From Bacteroidales bacterium (lineage in GTDB: Bacteria; Bacteroidota; Bacteroidia; Bacteroidales; WCHB1-69): a DNA stretch of 64,000 nucleotides. The position numbers and the translations under genes were made by a program. Each line of letters begins with the position of its first letter. The first letter of the stretch is position 1. The notes under the pieces were generated by a model. The model had not been told where the DNA came from. It saw nothing but the letters and a program-made list of their open reading frames with translations, and did no database searches. Positions 1,079 through 58,606 of the stretch are shown here, in pieces. The stretch covers positions 31,310-95,309 of the forward strand of contig JAKSMD010000001.1 of the NCBI GenBank assembly GCA_024400815.1. The letters run 5' to 3'.

Positions 1079-3535
1079 TTATCGGTTGCAAGTTTTGCAA
1101 ACAATGGCCTTCACTTCTTCGTTTTCCAACACGCAATAGGGCAACTTGTCGAACAAGCCGCAAAGGCGGGCAGGATTCTTCTCAGCGGCGATCTTCACTG
1201 CTTTTGTAAACAACGAACTCAAGTAGGTTTCCTCGCGGTGTGCGCGCATAGAGACGTATGAGAAAATGAAATCTTCAGAAATGGTAGGATCATCCAAGAA
1301 AGGATCCATCAAAGAAAGTGCGTAAGCATAATCATATTTTTTCACAAAATAGGAAGCCAACTTATACGCATTCTGCCAGCTATCCATCTTAGGATTGCGG
1401 ATCTCCTTGATTTTAGCAAAAGTAGCCACTGAAAGCGCCGTTGTTTCCGTATTCACTTGAGCGGTATCCAAATAGTTGACCACTTTGAGTTGGTATTCCA
1501 TATTCAAGCTATTGACTTTCTCTTTCGGCATACCCGGAACAGTATAAAGTTTATCAATGCTGGCTTGCGTCTTCATAATGTCAGCCGTGCTCTTCAATTG
1601 AGCTTGGAAAACATCGCAAACCGCCGTATTGAACGTGAGCAGCACATTGGTCGGATTCAAATTGAAGACTTTATACATTTCCGTAGAAATCGGTTCGGAC
1701 ATTTTGGTGGCGACGTAATATTTCATATAAAGTCTGTTGTTCAACATAGCTTGATATTCCTTTTTCATCGGAATATTCATTTCATCAACTTGAGAAGCTG
1801 AATAGTTGCCCATTTCGACTTGTTGCATCATATAGTTTTCGATAGACATTGCGAGTCCTTTGTTTTTCTCCGCCAATGCCTGATTGAACTTCCAAACTGC
1901 GAAAGTCTCTTCCTTTGCTTTCGTTTCAATAGGATATGTTACATAGTATTTAATTTCATAATAACGGCAAGGTGCCAAGTATCCGCTATCCAAAGTTTTG
2001 ATAGCCCAGCTGTCGGCTTTCAGTTGGCGAGCAGCTTCGTCCAATGTCAAAAAACTGAGATCGTAATATTCGCCATTGTTGACGATATCCTTTTTGAATT
2101 TTTCCCAGCAATAGTCATAGGAGACGACCACTTCAACGCCAGGATAGTGTGCTATAACATCTTTTTTCAGAAAATCGGCACGTTTCAATTGGATTTTTTG
2201 ATAATTGGCATCTTTGTAATAATTGGGCGAATTATGGGCAATAATTTCAATTTTATTGACTGTATATTCGGGAACATCAACTGCTTTCACCAAAGAGTCA
2301 AATGCAGCCGTAGTATAGTCTGTTTTTTTCAATTGATACGGGAATGAGACGCTGAAATCGCCCGTTTCTTGAGCAGCGACCCATTCGCCCTTGCTCTTGA
2401 TAGAAGTTTCATCTTTCAAGAAATTGATTTTTTCGTCATAGGCGGCATTTTTAGTTTCTACTGCCTTCGGGATGATAGTGCGGCAAATCCTATTGCCTTC
2501 TTTCAAAACCAGAATATGGATATCGAGATCGCTGTTCAAATCAATTCCTTCTGGGAGGTCGGTCAGTTTGGCAATCAACTTGCCGGATTTGAGGTTGGCA
2601 TTTTCATTGAGCTCCATCATTTTTTCATACGTAATCGGTTTTGTCACAAAACCACGATGGCTCAAATCATAATCCACATTGCCATTTTCACAATCGTATT
2701 GGCTATGTTGAACAAAGTCGATGGCAATTGCGTCCCCTTCTTTACCAATAAGTTTCTTCAGTCCCTTATAATCATCGCAAGTGATATAAACGCTGCCGTC
2801 TTTTCTTATTGAGACATAATCGGAAAGAACTTCCAAAGCGGGTTCAGCAGCACATTTCTTACAAATTTTGTCATCATAGCTCTTAAAACCGGCTTGTGTT
2901 TTGGTGAAAGGGACATCCTTTTCGCCAATTGCGGGTTTATAATTATTAAAGGTACGGTCGTTGCCGAGAACAAAAGAGACGTACATGCTCTTCATCAAGA
3001 CATCGGTATTGTAGCCGAAGCCGAAATAAGTGAATTGTTTGTCGAGAAGCACATCGGCTGTTTTCACATTTTTGAGGACGGACTGGATTAAAGCCAAGCA
3101 GAGATCATAATAAGAATATTCTGTTTCACCGAGGTAAGCTTTGGCTTTTGCAATCAGTTCAGCGCCATTGCCTGCGCAGTCGTATTTTTTCAAACGATAA
3201 TAGAGCGTACGATACGGAGCGACATTATCTTCCGTCTTTTCATCTTTGGAAGCCTGGTAGTCCGCTTGGAATTGAGCAGTTGAATCTAGGCGGACATCGT
3301 GCTTCAAAGTTTCCAAAAATCTGTACTCTTGGCGGGCCATATTAACCATATCGGTCATACAATTGTACAAAATTTTCTCATCGTAGTTGTTTGGTGCGAA
3401 ATTACGCGTATACTTCGCATTTTCTTTAAGCGACGACGGATTGAATGACATATATGGATTCTCCGTTTGAGCGAACAACATATTGCTGAATATCAACAAT
3501 ATGAAAGCAATAAAAAATGTATTTTTTCTAATCAT
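1079..3535 (-). CDS. large secreted hypothetical protein (818 aa from the internal Met)
   Basis: Long ORF 1079..3730. Met at 3535 gives the signal peptide MIRKNTFFIAFILLIFSNMLFAQ. I recognise no domain. Confidence 0.7.
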   Translation of the reverse strand: MIRKNTFFIAFILLIFSNMLFAQTENPYMSFNPSSLKENAKYTRNFAPNNYDEKILYNCMTDMVNMARQEYRFLETLKHDVRLDSTAQFQADYQASKDEKTEDNVAPYRTLYYRLKKYDCAGNGAELIAKAKAYLGETEYSYYDLCLALIQSVLKNVKTADVLLDKQFTYFGFGYNTDVLMKSMYVSFVLGNDRTFNNYKPAIGEKDVPFTKTQAGFKSYDDKICKKCAAEPALEVLSDYVSIRKDGSVYITCDDYKGLKKLIGKEGDAIAIDFVQHSQYDCENGNVDYDLSHRGFVTKPITYEKMMELNENANLKSGKLIAKLTDLPEGIDLNSDLDIHILVLKEGNRICRTIIPKAVETKNAAYDEKINFLKDETSIKSKGEWVAAQETGDFSVSFPYQLKKTDYTTAAFDSLVKAVDVPEYTVNKIEIIAHNSPNYYKDANYQKIQLKRADFLKKDVIAHYPGVEVVVSYDYCWEKFKKDIVNNGEYYDLSFLTLDEAARQLKADSWAIKTLDSGYLAPCRYYEIKYYVTYPIETKAKEETFAVWKFNQALAEKNKGLAMSIENYMMQQVEMGNYSASQVDEMNIPMKKEYQAMLNNRLYMKYYVATKMSEPISTEMYKVFNLNPTNVLLTFNTAVCDVFQAQLKSTADIMKTQASIDKLYTVPGMPKEKVNSLNMEYQLKVVNYLDTAQVNTETTALSVATFAKIKEIRNPKMDSWQNAYKLASYFVKKYDYAYALSLMDPFLDDPTISEDFIFSYVSMRAHREETYLSSLFTKAVKIAAEKNPARLCGLFDKLPYCVLENEEVKAIVCKTCNR

Positions 3536-53858: not shown

Positions 53859-55265
53859 TTATTCACCGTACGAAGAACCATCGAAACAATGCGTACAGAG
53901 GCGCTCTTTCGGCAAGCCAATAGCTTTGGCAATGGTTCCCAATTTGTTGAACTTCAATGTATCCACGCCAAGATGTTTGCGGATAACCTCCACCAAGTTG
54001 GCGTATTCTTTCGTAGTGTCGTCACTATATTTTTCCAAATTGCGAATTTCGCCGCCTTCCAATTCTGCAATGACACGGCGCGTAATCAATTCCATTTCCG
54101 TTTTGGAAGCAGAGAAATTCAGATAGTGGCAACCAAAATTCAGCGGCGGGCAGCTAATGCGGATGTGGACTTCCTTAGCACCGTAGCTGTAGAGCTTTTT
54201 CACATTATCGCGCAACTGCGTGCCCCGAACAATAGAGTCATCGCAGAAAACAATGCGCTGCCCCTTCATAATCTGCGTATTTGGCAGCAGCTTCATGCGG
54301 GCCACATGCTCACGCGTATCTTGGTCAACGGGCATAAAGCTACGAGACCATGTCGGCGTATATTTGATAATACCACGACGATACGGAATCTGTTTGCCCA
54401 TCGCATAACCCAATGCCATGCCGATACCAGAGTCAGGAATGGCGGAGACGAAATCGGCTTCAATATCATCCTCTCGACCCATTTCATAACCGTATGCATA
54501 GCGCGTATTTTCCACATTGACGCCTTCATAATCAGCGGTTGGATAACCGTAATAGATCCAAAGAAAAGAGCAAACCTGCAACTTTGGATTCGGTGCCAAC
54601 ATCTGCTCATAACCCTCGGCAGTAACCTTCAGGATTTCGCCCGGACCCACAAAATGCTCAACCGAATAATCAAGGTTTGCAAAGCTGTGGCAATCAAAGC
54701 ACAAAGCATGAGAGCCCTCTTTCTTGCCCACCACGATAGGCGTACGACCGTAATAATCGCGAGCCGCAATGATGCCATCATTCGTCAAGATGAGCATAGA
54801 GCAGGAACCCTTCACCTTACGAAAAACATTTTGAATGCCGTCCACAAAATCCTTGCCCTGCGTGATCATCAAAGCAATTAACTCCGTGGGGTTCGTTTTG
54901 CCCGAACTCAACTCGGTAAACTGCTGGTTCTTGGCCAAGCATTCAGCCTCCAACTCATCCAGATTGTTGATTTTGGCTACCGTCACGATGCCAAATCTTC
55001 CCAAGTGGGAATTCACCACGATAGGTTGCGCATCCGTATCACTGATAACACCAATGCCGACATTGCCTTTGAACTTCGACAGGTCGTCGCCAAATTTTGT
55101 TCTGAAATAAGAATTCTCTATGTTATGAATGGAACGGTGGAAAACATTGTTCTCTATGGTAACCATACCTGCACGCTTGGTTCCGAGATGGGAATGATAA
55201 TCTATGCCATAAAAAAGGTCGGGATTACAAGGACCATTAGAAGCAACTCCAAAAAAACCACCCAT
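53859..55265 (-). CDS. purF: amidophosphoribosyltransferase-like protein lacking the N-terminal Cys nucleophile
   Basis: 468 aa. PRTase block IVFCDDSIVRGTQ and Ntn-amidotransferase-like N-terminal half. The N-terminus is MGGFFGV where canonical PurF has MCG(I/V). Confidence 0.8.
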   Translation of the reverse strand: MGGFFGVASNGPCNPDLFYGIDYHSHLGTKRAGMVTIENNVFHRSIHNIENSYFRTKFGDDLSKFKGNVGIGVISDTDAQPIVVNSHLGRFGIVTVAKINNLDELEAECLAKNQQFTELSSGKTNPTELIALMITQGKDFVDGIQNVFRKVKGSCSMLILTNDGIIAARDYYGRTPIVVGKKEGSHALCFDCHSFANLDYSVEHFVGPGEILKVTAEGYEQMLAPNPKLQVCSFLWIYYGYPTADYEGVNVENTRYAYGYEMGREDDIEADFVSAIPDSGIGMALGYAMGKQIPYRRGIIKYTPTWSRSFMPVDQDTREHVARMKLLPNTQIMKGQRIVFCDDSIVRGTQLRDNVKKLYSYGAKEVHIRISCPPLNFGCHYLNFSASKTEMELITRRVIAELEGGEIRNLEKYSDDTTKEYANLVEVIRKHLGVDTLKFNKLGTIAKAIGLPKERLCTHCFDGSSYGE

Positions 55266-55321
55266 AATTTGTTAAAATTTGATTGTTTGTTGAATGTGAA
55301 ATTTGTTGTGAAATGAGGCGG

Positions 55322-55329
55322 CAAAAGTA
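55322..55329 (-). promoter_or_regulatory. -7 box TAnnTTTG (tacttttg) for the purF-like gene
   Basis: Perfect motif 57 nt upstream of the ATG at 55265. Confidence 0.5.
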
Positions 55330-55422
55330 AATTTTTTGATGTTTTTTTGAGCAATCTTTTCAAACAAGTTATCACCAATTTATCAACAATACGATGACCT
55401 AAATGCACCTGAAAAAAAATAT

Positions 55423-55430
55423 TATCTTTG
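55423..55430 (+). promoter_or_regulatory. -7 box TAnnTTTG (tatctttg) for the lipoprotein/rSAM pair
   Basis: Perfect motif 27 nt upstream of the ATG at 55457; followed by CATCCTCA. Confidence 0.6.
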
Positions 55431-55456
55431 CATCCTCAAAATAAAATCAAAATAAA

Positions 55457-55864
55457 ATGAACATGTTCCAGAAAATCAAAGAGAAAAAACAGCAGTTAAT
55501 CCGTTTCCTATTCGGTTCGTTCACGGCTACCGCGCTGATGTTCACCTTCCAGGCCTGCTATGGCATGCCGCCGCAAAATGATTTAGATGCGACCATTCAA
55601 GGCACCGTCAAGTCGGCCGAAACCGGCGAGCCCATCCAAGGCATCACCGTCTGTGGAACCCGCAATGACCTATTCGTACAAACGGGTGCCAATGGGAACT
55701 TTCAGCTGCCCGTTCATTTTGGAAGCGACCAATACCTCATTCATATTAAAGATGAAGACGGAACAGAAAACGGCTCCTATCAAGATTTGGACACCCTGTT
55801 AGATGCTTCTGTTTTGACGGATGGAGTCACCATCCTGTTAGAAAAACGCTATGACAATCAATAA
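55457..55864 (+). CDS. radical-SAM-associated putative lipoprotein (CarboxypepD_reg-like fold)
   Basis: Lipobox-like TFQAC; IQGTVKSAETGEPIQGITVCG...NGNFQL, typical of carboxypeptidase-regulatory-like domains. Overlaps the rSAM gene by 14 nt. Confidence 0.7.
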   Translation: MNMFQKIKEKKQQLIRFLFGSFTATALMFTFQACYGMPPQNDLDATIQGTVKSAETGEPIQGITVCGTRNDLFVQTGANGNFQLPVHFGSDQYLIHIKDEDGTENGSYQDLDTLLDASVLTDGVTILLEKRYDNQ

Positions 55865-56909
55865 GCAAAATCGATTCAAGCGATTTCTTTTCCGCATTTT
55901 CCGTAAAAACGAAACGGAAATTCACGAGCTCAACTACCTGTTTTGGGAGTGCACCTGGCGCTGCAATCTGTCGTGTCGTCATTGCGGCAGCGACTGCAAA
56001 TCGGAAGCCTGCGTACCCGACATGCCGTTTGCGGATTTCCTGAAAGCCATCGAGCCCTTAGAAACACGATACAAGAAGAACAACACCATCATTGCCATCA
56101 CGGGTGGGGAACCGCTTTTGCGCAGCGACCTCGCTGACTGTGGGCGGACATTGCGAGAACACGGCTTTCACTGGGGCATCGTCACCAACGGCATGCTCTA
56201 TGATGAGGCACGGCATCAGGAACTCGTGGCCGCCGGCATGAGCTCCGTCACCGTCAGTCTGGACGGCTTGGAAGAGACGCACAATTGGCTGCGCGGCCAT
56301 CCGCAAAGCTATCAGCGAGCACTGAAGGCCCTCCAACTCATCGCGCGCACCCCGACTTTGAACTACGACGTCGTGACCTGCGTGCACCAACGCAACATAG
56401 ATGAGCTTCCGCAACTGAAGGAGACACTCATCGCCAACGGCATCCGACACTGGCGGCTCTTCACCATCGCGCCTATCGGACGGGCAACCGACAACAAAGG
56501 ACTCCAACTCTCACGCCAGCAATTGGAGAAAATGTTCCAATTCATTGCCGAAACGCGCCACGAAGGACGCATCGACATTAAATTCAGCTGCGAAGCTTAC
56601 ACTGGAAAATACGAGGAAAGCATCCGCGACAGCTACTTCTTCTGCCGCGCCGGCATCAACATCGGCAGCGTGCTCATCAATGGCGACATCTGCGCCTGTC
56701 CCAATGTGGACCGATCCTTCGTGCAAGGCAACATCTACCAAGACAAGCTGATGGATGTCTGGGACAACAAGTTCTCCGTCATGCGCGACCGCCGTTGGAT
56801 GCGATGCGGACCATGTGCCAAATGCAAAGACTTCAAACAATGCATGGGCGGCGCCATGCATCTACGCCCTAAAATGAATGAAAATATACGACGCTGCTAC
56901 AAGTATTAA
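55851..56909 (+). CDS. radical SAM enzyme with a SPASM/Twitch-type C-terminal Cys cluster
   Basis: CNLSCRHC (CxxxCxxC) and GGEPLL; C-terminal CRAGINIGSVLINGDICACPNV and CGPCAKCKDFKQCMGG. Confidence 0.85.
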   Translation: MTINKQNRFKRFLFRIFRKNETEIHELNYLFWECTWRCNLSCRHCGSDCKSEACVPDMPFADFLKAIEPLETRYKKNNTIIAITGGEPLLRSDLADCGRTLREHGFHWGIVTNGMLYDEARHQELVAAGMSSVTVSLDGLEETHNWLRGHPQSYQRALKALQLIARTPTLNYDVVTCVHQRNIDELPQLKETLIANGIRHWRLFTIAPIGRATDNKGLQLSRQQLEKMFQFIAETRHEGRIDIKFSCEAYTGKYEESIRDSYFFCRAGINIGSVLINGDICACPNVDRSFVQGNIYQDKLMDVWDNKFSVMRDRRWMRCGPCAKCKDFKQCMGGAMHLRPKMNENIRRCYKY

Positions 56910-56927
56910 TTTTTTTGTATTTTTGCC

Positions 56928-56935
56928 GCGTTTTA
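56928..56935 (+). promoter_or_regulatory. -7 box TAnnTTTG (tatttttg) for the mini-lipoprotein gene
   Basis: Perfect motif 37 nt upstream of the ATG at 56972. Confidence 0.55.
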
Positions 56936-56971
56936 TTGACATTTATTACTAACCTTAAAATTTACAAAACA

Positions 56972-57181
56972 ATGAAAAAAGTATTATGTATCGCTGCAGC
57001 TACTTTGATGATTGCTGCTCTTTCCACTTCTTGCAACAAGAAATGCGAATGCAAAACTTATGCTGCTGGTGTTGTAGTAACAACAACCACTATGGAAATA
57101 GAAAAAGGTAAAAAATGTGATGATTACTCAACTTATTCTGAAGAATTAGAAACAGGTATTCAATGTAAACCGACTATGTAA
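56972..57181 (+). CDS. 69-aa Cys/Thr-rich small lipoprotein
   Basis: MKKVLCIAAATLMIAALSTSC lipobox, then NKKCECKTYAAGVVVTTTTMEIEKGKKCDDYSTYSEELETGIQCKPTM. Own promoter and own terminator. Confidence 0.65.
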   Translation: MKKVLCIAAATLMIAALSTSCNKKCECKTYAAGVVVTTTTMEIEKGKKCDDYSTYSEELETGIQCKPTM

Positions 57182-57205
57182 TCATACATTTTCCGAGATT
57201 TACAG

Positions 57206-57231
57206 AGCCCCTCATTGCAGGGGCTTTTTTT
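57206..57231 (+). terminator. rho-independent terminator after the mini-lipoprotein gene
   Basis: AGCCCCT-CATTGC-AGGGGCT followed by TTTTTTT. Confidence 0.85.
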
Positions 57232-57301
57232 ATGGGTTAAAATATCGTAATGCGGTGCAAAAGTCTCGTTGCAAAACGGTCCTTCTATCGCTAAAGTTTA
57301 T

Positions 57302-57309
57302 TATCTTTG
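57302..57309 (+). promoter_or_regulatory. -7 box TAnnTTTG (tatctttg) for rimO
   Basis: Perfect motif 23 nt upstream of the ATG at 57332; followed by CGCCCTCA. Confidence 0.6.
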
Positions 57310-57331
57310 CGCCCTCAAAAACAAAGACGCT

Positions 57332-58606
57332 ATGACCATCAACATCATCACTTTAGGATGCTCCAAAAACATCGTCGATTCGGAAGTTATCGCCGCCCAA
57401 CTCCAGAAAAAAGGGCACCGCATATTTTTCGAAGGCACGATGAACAGCGACATCGTCATCCTGAACACTTGCAGTTTCATTGGAGATGCCCGCGAAGAGT
57501 CCGTCAATGAAATTTTTGCTCAGATAGAGCGCAAGATGCGCCGTCAAGTCAAGAAGATCTATGTAGTGGGTTGCTTGGCCGAACGGTGCAAAGCCGATTT
57601 GGTGAACGAATTGCCTGAAGTGGATGGATTTTTCACCTTTGCGGAATTGTCGAAGTTGGTTGAAGACCCGAGCTTCAACCTGCTGGGGACCTCCGAGCGA
57701 TTGGTATCCACGCCAGCGCACTACGCCTACCTCAAGATTTCAGAGGGCTGCGACCACCAATGTTCCTACTGCGCCATCCCGCTCATCCGAGGCAAGCAGA
57801 TCTCCAAGCCCATCCCGCTCCTTGTTGAGGAGGCGAAAAAGCTGGCCGACCAAGGCACCAAGGAGGTGATGCTCATCGCGCAAGATCTCACCTACTATGG
57901 CATCGACCTAACCGGCAAGCACGAATTGGCCCAGCTGATGGAAGCCCTTGCCCAAGTGAAAGGGCTCGAATGGATACGCCTGCACTACGCCTACCCGCTC
58001 AACTTCCCCTACGAAATCCTGGATGTGATGAACGCATATCCGCAATATTGCCGGTACCTGGACATACCCATCCAGCACATCAGCGACGACATCCTCACGA
58101 GCATGCGTCGCGGCGGACGTTCCCAATACACCTACGACTTAGTGGACCGCATTCGCGAAACCGTCCCCGGCATCGCCCTACGCACAACTTTGATTTCCGG
58201 TTATCCAACGGAAACCCACGAGCAGCACAAAGAATTAGTGGCATTCGTGAAACATGCCCGCTTTGAGCGCCTCGGCGTCTTCGCCTACTCCCAAGAAGAC
58301 GACACCCCCGCCTACGACCTGGGCGACCCGATTCGCAAGAATGTGAAGACCAAGCGGGTGAACGAAATCATGCAACTGCAAGAGCAAATCTCTTTGGAAA
58401 ACAACGAATCCAAAGTGGGCACTACCATGAAAGTCATTATTGACGCAGAAGAGGCAGACTGCTATGTGGGCCGCACCGAGTTCGACTCCCCAGATGTCGA
58501 TAACAGCGTCCTCATCAGCAAAGAGAAAGCCTTGACTATCGGCGAATTTTACAACATCAAAATCACAGAGGCAGCCGAATACGACCTTTACGGTGAATTA
58601 GCATAA
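57332..58606 (+). CDS. rimO: ribosomal protein S12 methylthiotransferase
   Basis: INIITLGCSKNIVDSE, the radical SAM CDHQCSYC, and a C-terminal TRAM-like region. The start is set at the Met downstream of the promoter box. Confidence 0.85.
   Translation: MTINIITLGCSKNIVDSEVIAAQLQKKGHRIFFEGTMNSDIVILNTCSFIGDAREESVNEIFAQIERKMRRQVKKIYVVGCLAERCKADLVNELPEVDGFFTFAELSKLVEDPSFNLLGTSERLVSTPAHYAYLKISEGCDHQCSYCAIPLIRGKQISKPIPLLVEEAKKLADQGTKEVMLIAQDLTYYGIDLTGKHELAQLMEALAQVKGLEWIRLHYAYPLNFPYEILDVMNAYPQYCRYLDIPIQHISDDILTSMRRGGRSQYTYDLVDRIRETVPGIALRTTLISGYPTETHEQHKELVAFVKHARFERLGVFAYSQEDDTPAYDLGDPIRKNVKTKRVNEIMQLQEQISLENNESKVGTTMKVIIDAEEADCYVGRTEFDSPDVDNSVLISKEKALTIGEFYNIKITEAAEYDLYGELA

Follow-up and report, generated by a model that had tools for sequence, protein, structure and literature searches.

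Background

Spliceases are radical S-adenosylmethionine (rSAM) enzymes with a SPASM domain that cut C8H9NO out of a precursor encoded next to them, at its X-Y-G motifs; binary systems consisting of the enzyme and its precursor, without a Y or RRE protein, have been described, and in published AlphaFold2 models a leader helix is predicted to bind the splicease (PMC11414181, PMC10849128, PMC11626197, PMC11002830). The splice tag of PlpA (..LYGLPI) shows a Y-G-x-P pattern as well (PMC10533398). The present work concerns two overlapping genes in a 64,000-nucleotide stretch of DNA from a Bacteroidales bacterium (GenBank assembly GCA_024400815.1, contig JAKSMD010000001.1, positions 31,310 to 95,309 of the forward strand), the whole of which is hereafter called the window and numbered from its first letter. 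One gene encodes a lipoprotein of 135 amino acids, named lipoA here, and the other an rSAM/SPASM enzyme of 352 amino acids. We propose, with a probability of roughly 50%, that the two genes are a maturase-substrate cassette of the TIGR04133/TIGR04134 system in which the enzyme modifies the lipoA junction, that is, the region around the predicted lipoprotein cleavage site, most likely by excision of tyramine.

Two other groups of SPASM enzymes are relevant to this locus. Anaerobic sulfatase-maturating enzymes (anSMEs) modify Sec-exported proteins in the cytoplasm, in Bacteroides among others, and act on a Cys or Ser of the full-length protein. An earlier note on this DNA, made from the sequence alone, had considered a SPASM maturase acting on a lipoprotein precursor before export to be new; given the anSME precedent, this novelty was overstated. 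The second group comprises CteB, PapB and Tte1186, thioether-forming enzymes of the SCIFF/ranthipeptide type, in which an auxiliary cluster I with three Cys ligands binds a Cys or selenocysteine of the substrate (PMC10177961, PMC10452713).

Identity of the gene pair

The lipoA gene (55457-55864, + strand) encodes a lysine-rich n-region, a hydrophobic helix, the lipobox FQAC and a transthyretin-like beta-sandwich. The rSAM gene (55851-56909, + strand) overlaps it by 14 nucleotides, the stop codon being counted. Both open reading frames (ORFs), together with that of a 69-amino-acid mini-lipoprotein further downstream, were located as the earlier note had described them, and the coordinates agree with the overlap that it had given.

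The enzyme scored 471.3 bits (E = 1.6e-141) against the NCBIfam profile TIGR04133 (rSAM_w_lipo), for which the cutoff is 425 bits, and the match extended over residues 12-350 of the enzyme and positions 8-345 of the 350 in the profile. The Pfam domains Radical_SAM (PF04055, 60.9 bits) and SPASM (PF13186, 27.4 bits) were both found in it over cutoff. For lipoA the score against TIGR04134 (lipo_with_rSAM) was 36.3 bits (E = 5.3e-09), a near miss 3.5 bits under the cutoff of 39.8 bits, and lipoA of the window was therefore regarded as a divergent member of the rumen clade. Relatives of lipoA were recovered by tblastn in all major clades sampled, at identities as low as 27%. The resemblance of lipoA to CarboxypepD_reg that had been noticed before was weak at the profile level (E about 5e-6, a score below the gathering threshold), and the fold was confirmed by the AlphaFold2 model and Foldseek.

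Homologs in the databases are named 'TIGR04133 family radical SAM/SPASM protein', 'radical SAM enzyme (rSAM/lipoprotein system)' and 'putative lipoprotein (rSAM/lipoprotein system)', in agreement with the name of a radical SAM-associated putative lipoprotein which the earlier note had given. The locus shares with this 'rSAM/lipoprotein system' of the Joint Genome Institute (JGI) an enzyme over cutoff, a lipoprotein with the leader, the ACYG motif and the sandwich, the adjacency of the two genes and their translational coupling; it differs in that lipoA of the window is below the cutoff of TIGR04134. The family is catalogued as a 'hypothetical equivalog' with no function assigned. We found no paper in the searchable literature that assigns a function to the pair, so the earlier statement that it has no assigned chemistry holds, and none that mentions TIGR04133, while the single mention of TIGR04134 that was found is a mislabelled C-terminal domain of the type IX secretion system.

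The profile search returned 3,961 lipoprotein clusters (90% identity) at E <= 1. More than 6,000 matches to the enzyme were obtained at E <= 1e-20, a number to be taken as an upper bound, since members of other rSAM families may be among them. The family members came from Bacteroidota of gut, rumen, termite and sediment, all of them anoxic habitats. As a kind the pair is not new: the two-gene family to which it belongs has been named and catalogued, though not characterised. What may be new, unless the curators of the family have already noted it, is the restriction of the invariance to A-C-Y-G at the site of cleavage, the forms of lipoA without a sandwich, the paralogous precursors and, in two lineages, a beta-barrel-like gene after lipoA, all of which are described below.

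Linkage of lipoA and the rSAM gene

A genome scan found 95 relatives of the enzyme, and the best 80 loci, with enzyme identities of 51-80%, were kept. They belonged to Bacteroidales, Marinilabiliales, Prolixibacteraceae and Paludibacter, with a few termite-gut metagenome-assembled genomes (MAGs) labelled Treponema. One of the carriers, Geofilum rhodophaeum HF401 (L067), can be cultivated. The presence of the pair in these MAGs (L044, L047, L048 and L049) may be due either to horizontal transfer out of Bacteroidota or to a binning error. Of the 77 testable genome loci, 74 had a motif-bearing lipoA ORF directly 5' of the rSAM gene.

The linkage was also evaluated from the side of the lipoprotein. 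Metagenomes were scanned with the back-translated lipoA motif, the enzyme not being used, which gave 24 chance matches and 98 real ORFs with leader and motif, 83 of them testable. An rSAM gene was present within about 2 kb in 78 of these 83 ORFs; it was immediately downstream in 65, downstream past an intervening gene in nine and divergent in four. Individual look-ups of lipoA homologs showed the rSAM gene immediately 3' in all three places. No third conserved gene, such as one for a protease, a transporter or an RRE protein, emerged from all-against-all clustering of the neighbouring ORFs, in which the next cluster occurred in 7 of 81 loci.

Conservation of the lipoA junction

The proposed modification site of lipoA is the motif F29-T-F-Q-A-C34-Y35-G36-M-P38 (55541-55570, + strand). 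It splits into the lipobox F-Q-A-C and an overlapping X-Y-G site, C-Y-G (C34-Y35-G36; 55556-55564, + strand), which is followed by x-P. Among 22 diverse orthologs, A33, C34, Y35 and G36 were the only invariant columns, and R16, F29, F31, Q32 and P38 were at least 90% conserved. C34-Y35-G36 was invariant not only in these 22 sequences but also in 63 orthologs from the genome loci and 45 homologs from the databases. LipoA of the window has every invariant or near-invariant column of F-x-F-Q-A-C-Y-G-x-P. The mean pairwise identity of motif residues 29-38 was 0.83 (0.80 between distant clades), compared to 0.35 (0.27) for the beta-sandwich and 0.36-0.39 (0.25-0.30) for the n- and h-regions of the signal peptide. 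Cys34 is usually the sole Cys of the precursor, and an Asp at +6 or +7 from it was only about 50% conserved.

The A-C-Y-G motif straddles the predicted signal peptidase II (SPII) site, the fit to the lipobox rule having been judged by eye. Conservation on both sides of this site is readable only on the uncleaved, still cytoplasmic precursor, which is where an rSAM enzyme works. Two other routes of processing were considered and set aside. Cleavage before Gln32 by signal peptidase I or under a Q rule is unlikely because the residues at -1 and -3 are both Phe (again by eye), and Tat export of a pre-modified lipoA was rejected as a family feature since only 8 of 63 orthologs have a twin-Arg in their n-region.

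The AlphaFold2 model of lipoA, with a predicted local distance difference test (pLDDT) score of 77, consisted of a helix (residues 3-20), a low-confidence linker holding the motif (residues 21-44) and a confident sandwich (residues 45-128). The best PDB matches of the sandwich in Foldseek were the transthyretin-like domain of carboxypeptidase D and periplasmic N-terminal extension (NTE) domains of SusC. Some members of the family lack this domain altogether. Forms of 65-69 amino acids keep the leader and ACYG(T/C)P, the sandwich being replaced by an acidic low-complexity tail (L054:5069-5266, L131:399-596, L196:195-401 on the - strand, L101:601-801 on the - strand, L107:834-1043, and L171 with its motif at 1995-2017), and those of L054, L131 and L196 still lie beside the enzyme gene. 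The invariance of the junction together with the existence of sandwich-less forms indicates that the functional core of lipoA is the junction and not the globular domain.

Tandem duplicates of lipoA, one copy of them truncated, were detected in L046 (5372-5500 and 5592-6005), L113 (motifs at 1094 and 1524) and L158 (2854 and 4728). An orphan paralog in L104 (6082-6537, - strand) had no rSAM gene within 6 kb. These tandem and orphan paralogs recall, by analogy, maturases that serve several precursors.

Features of the rSAM enzyme

An alignment of 81 enzyme sequences contained 14 Cys that were at least 99% conserved. Three of them, C38, C42 and C45, form the CX3CX2C motif of the radical SAM cluster (CNLSCRHC, as had been reported; 55962-55985, + strand) and were Cys in 81 of 81 sequences, as were the flanking C34 and C49. 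Seven lie in the SPASM region (C247, C265, C283, C322, C325, C331 and C349; 56589-56897, + strand), and the remaining four, C34, C49, C97 and C177, belong to the core, where they could bind a further metal, donate H atoms or act as redox Cys. C319, the first Cys of the enzyme's 'CGPC', was Cys in only 28% of the sequences and is not conserved.

Of the seven canonical SPASM Cys, the enzyme has six. The seventh, which is the fourth Cys of CX2CX5CX3C, is replaced by Ala335; this replacement had already been noticed in the window, and the Ala proved to be kept in at least 90% of the family, so that auxiliary cluster I may be left with three Cys ligands. In anSME this cluster has four Cys ligands, and the TIGR04133 enzymes have Ala335 at the matching position. 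An invariant His, His337, is located two residues past Ala335.

Only 37 residues precede the CX3CX2C motif, which leaves no space for an RRE. Accordingly, no PqqD/RRE match was found in the enzyme with NCBIfam or Pfam, and no conserved third gene beside the pair could supply one. CX3CX2C plus SPASM without an RRE is a minimal architecture like that of the protein-modifying anSME. The enzyme resembles anSME in its similar size and in the SPASM domain without an RRE, and anSMEcpe is a full-length structural match. On the other hand, the substrate motif of anSME is C/S-x-P/A-x-R, whereas that of lipoA is A-C-Y-G-x-P, and the anSME model was absent from the 25 best NCBIfam matches of the enzyme.

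The best non-self NCBIfam matches of the enzyme, at 116-126 bits, were TIGR04053, NirJ2 (124 bits), AhbD (117 bits) and TIGR04103 (116.5 bits), the last being the fifth-best match overall; the PapB model gave 69 bits. By sequence, the best PDB match was BlsE, with SkfB and PqqE also found. Foldseek returned SuiB, SkfB, BlsE, GDGT-MAS, MoaA, anSMEcpe and PqqE, the full-length matches including SuiB, SkfB, anSME and PqqE, and EpeE at rank 29. Placing the enzyme by sequence or fold was given up, since these matches are generic for SPASM/twitch enzymes and do not discriminate between peptide and small-molecule chemistry.

Proposed mechanism and alternative explanations

In the mechanism that we propose, the lipoA and rSAM genes would be co-transcribed and translationally coupled through their overlap. 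The cytoplasmic rSAM/SPASM enzyme would bind the precursor of the adjacent lipoprotein and modify it at F-x-F-Q-A-C-Y-G-x-P; since this motif straddles the predicted SPII site, the enzyme would act before Sec export and lipidation. The product would then be exported, lipidated if the Cys thiol survives, and would reside in the envelope with its transthyretin-like beta-sandwich or, in some lineages, with the acidic tail alone. As for the chemistry, the enzyme would excise tyramine at C-Y-G in the way that PlpX-type rSAM/SPASM spliceases do at X-Y-G. The parts of this proposal differ in strength. That lipoA is the substrate of the enzyme is probable, and the CYG junction is slightly favoured as the site of modification; tyramine excision, the likeliest single chemistry, is tentative and less probable than not.

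The pair resembles the splicease systems PlpX/PlpA and RhaX/RhaA in several respects. A SPASM-bearing rSAM enzyme is encoded beside a precursor with an invariant X-Y-G, here C-Y-G, which x-P follows as it does in LYGLP; the system has two components, neither of them an RRE or Y protein; and a leader helix is predicted upstream of the site. Unlike the spliceases, the enzyme of the window lies outside TIGR04103 (IPR026482), which we take to be the family of PlpX, with 116.5 bits compared to a cutoff of 725 bits. LipoA is also a Sec/SPII lipoprotein precursor and not a Nif11/NHLP peptide, and its X would be the lipid-acceptor Cys. The link to the spliceases is a lead from motif and architecture and not a demonstrated relationship.

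Several observations weigh against this proposal. The score of the enzyme with TIGR04103 is equal to those with NirJ2, AhbD and TIGR04053, and sequence therefore does not place the enzyme with the spliceases. Spliceotide precursors in the literature cited above have leaders of the Nif11/NHLP type, and a Sec/SPII-exported precursor is not mentioned there. The A-C share of the motif invariance is a requirement of any lipobox. Two testable genome loci, L004 and L034, had no lipoA partner nearby, and 5 of the 83 metagenome motif ORFs had no nearby enzyme, although one of these (L218) looks like a chance match. Finally, the AlphaFold2 model of the enzyme was unreliable in the SPASM part (pLDDT <50), so that cluster ligation is read from the motif only.

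The linkage and motif evidence would apply equally to another small modification at the same lipoA junction, such as hydroxylation of a C-H bond, dehydrogenation, or epimerisation of a residue adjoining the Cys that carries the lipid. In the rSAM epimerases YydG and EpeE the H atom is donated by a Cys of the core, and the four extra invariant core Cys of the enzyme and the occurrence of EpeE among the structural matches are consistent with such a reaction. However, EpeE is a weak structural match compared to SuiB, SkfB and anSME, no feature points to any single one of these chemistries, and the X-Y-G coincidence would be left unexplained. We consider a modification of this kind unlikely.

A thioether like those of sactipeptides and ranthipeptides has rather lower odds. 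The Cys34 thiolate would bind a free site of the auxiliary cluster and be cross-linked to a neighbouring residue, with lipidation blocked and the 'signal peptide' repurposed. The putative three-Cys auxiliary cluster I, which would resemble the substrate-binding clusters of CteB, PapB and Tte1186, and the invariance of Cys34 as usually the only Cys of the precursor argue for this explanation, and the TIGR04133 enzymes share with those three the SPASM domain and the apparent lack of one Cys ligand. Yet in CteB the missing ligand is at another position, the Cys of CX3C being kept (PMC10177961), and in the TIGR04133 enzymes the invariant His337 could serve as the fourth ligand. CteB, PapB and Tte1186 further differ in having an N-terminal RRE and short Cys-rich peptide substrates, and the PapB model matched the enzyme poorly. 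Moreover, the invariance of Tyr, Gly and Pro after the Cys would not be explained, no conserved acceptor occurs at a fixed distance (the half-conserved Asp being the case in point), and a cross-linked Cys is hard to reconcile with a lipobox which in other respects conforms to the lipoprotein rule.

The enzyme might instead make or modify a small molecule, perhaps a tetrapyrrole as in the case of NirJ and AhbD, and lipoA would be its partner in the envelope, binding or using this molecule. The rank of NirJ2 and AhbD among the best non-self matches, the small-molecule enzyme BlsE as the best sequence match among solved structures, and the beta-barrel-like gene after lipoA in some lineages, which suggests an envelope module, are in favour of this explanation. 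It is nevertheless improbable: the conservation of the pair does not extend to any gene for biosynthesis or transport, the top constraint in lipoA falls in a disordered junction of ten residues and not on a binding surface of the sandwich, and the short forms keep motif and enzyme without any sandwich.

The downstream mini-lipoprotein

The 69-amino-acid mini-lipoprotein (56972-57181, + strand) had been put forward as a SCIFF/ranthipeptide-like substrate of the enzyme and the third component of the system. Its adjacency to the pair in the window and five related genomes, five Cys in 49 residues and the lack of a terminator between the rSAM and mini genes were in favour of this model, which the findings on synteny, composition and family breadth given below rule out for practical purposes. 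The coupling of the rSAM enzyme to the 135-amino-acid lipoprotein was upheld; the membership of the mini-lipoprotein was not.

Among the 80 genomes, a homolog of the mini-lipoprotein followed the enzyme in only five, exactly those that keep rimO downstream, and was absent 3' of the enzyme in the other 75. Lack of synteny with the rSAM pair in related genomes was the outcome that the earlier note itself had named as speaking against a three-gene system. One relative, at 60% identity, still lies next to rimO although no rSAM pair is present upstream, and other relatives were flanked by GcvP and a release factor or by RseC and a DPP-IV peptidase, or lay after a TonB-dependent receptor. In L045, where the rSAM pair is intact, the mini gene is found only as a frameshifted pseudogene, at a distance of 3 kb and on the opposite strand.

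The composition of the mini gene also sets it apart. Its GC content at third codon positions (GC3) was 0.21, compared to 0.69 in both flanking genes, those of the enzyme and rimO. In each of the eight other loci checked (L018, L022, L027, L028, L085, L087, L091 and L094), the GC3 of the mini homolog was likewise lower than that of a gene nearby. T-ending codons, e.g. GCT, ACT and GGT, are preferred in the mini gene.

A Bacteroidetes-type -7 box, TATTTTTG (56918-56925, + strand), matches the consensus 47 nucleotides 5' of the mini start codon and suggests a separate transcription unit. The earlier note was right that the gene has a promoter box of its own, but its coordinate (56928-56935) was 10 nucleotides off. 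A second box of this type, TATCTTTG (55423-55430, + strand), is found 27 nucleotides 5' of the lipoA start codon, as a consensus match only. These two were the only matches to TAnnTTTG in 55251-57000, the window average on the + strand being 0.5 per kb. The mini unit ends in an intrinsic-terminator-like hairpin (57204-57227, nine pairs of which five are G-C) with a T run (57204-57237 in all, + strand). This was the sole terminator-like site in 55250-57400, and the strong terminator that had been described after the mini gene was thus located. The low GC3, the T-ending codons, the promoter box and the strong terminator suggest a very highly expressed small lipoprotein.

The mini-lipoprotein had no match in NCBIfam or Pfam, including the SCIFF model. 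An exhaustive search showed that it belongs to a family of at least 61 clusters (50% identity), nearly all of 62-76 amino acids, with the pattern SC-x(2,3)-C-x-C-x-Y..G...C-[ST]-[DE]...G-x-x-C. Four Cys are conserved after the lipobox Cys, and this pattern would correspond to two structural disulfides. The count of five Cys in the mature protein was correct, but the lipid-acceptor Cys is one of them, and the VVVTTTT run that had been pointed out is not conserved in the family alignment. Nor does the locus qualify as a SCIFF/ranthipeptide system by its other features: a Cys-rich precursor gene stands beside the enzyme in just those 5 of 80 genomes, the enzyme has no RRE or space for one, and the mini-lipoprotein matched no precursor model. 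It is an independent small lipoprotein outside the rSAM system, and probably a highly expressed one.

Neighbouring genes

The genes around the pair varied between lineages. In two lineages, a termite-gut group and a clade with a divergent rSAM gene, a gene for a protein of 189-218 amino acids directly follows lipoA. The protein has a signal peptide and a G-[YW]-R-F end like the C-terminal signal of outer-membrane beta-barrels; a single weak match to OMP_b-brl was obtained. Beta-barrel-like genes were located at L124:1410-1979 (-), L172:673-1266 (+), L123:1727-2889 (-), L175:4801-5394 (-), L186:533-1180 (+), L141:423-1076 (-) and L197:371-1027 (-), and homologs were present in 21 loci and absent from the window. 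A DUF4292 gene and the small beta-barrel-like genes near the pair are lineage-specific. In L054 a multi-pass membrane protein of 229 amino acids (weak Mpv17_PMP22 match) is encoded between the short lipoA and the rSAM gene. L004 has no lipoA 5' of its rSAM gene but retains the flanking gene of 401 amino acids, 133 nucleotides from the rSAM gene, which looks like a clean deletion of lipoA.

L099 contains a gene with Lnb_N/5TMH_Lnb domains (2237-3409, - strand) 1.6 kb 5' of lipoA. Lnb is the lipoprotein N-acyltransferase of Bacteroidota. This gene is not conserved in the other loci and its position is therefore probably a coincidence. Upstream of the pair in the window, a PurF-like gene of 468 amino acids (53859-55265, - strand) showed a GATase_7 match and a weak phosphoribosyltransferase-like (PRTase-like) domain. 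As it scored 194 bits compared to a PurF cutoff of 350 bits, it was considered a paralog. Its synteny with the rSAM pair extends to the closest genomes.

Conclusions

The strongest constraint on lipoA falls exactly on the site of lipoprotein cleavage and lipidation, and it reads X-Y-G. It is a possible, though doubtful, reading that the TIGR04133 enzyme is a splicease-type rSAM enzyme which excises tyramine at a C-Y-G overlapping the lipobox, so that the lipoproteins would start with a lipidated alpha-keto-beta-amino acid. We know of no earlier case in which a splicease-like enzyme acts on an exported protein, and this would be the first. If it is true, the backbone of a Sec-exported lipoprotein would be spliced, and across widespread envelope lipoproteins of Bacteroidota a new lipoprotein N-terminus would replace the canonical Cys after cleavage by signal peptidase II.

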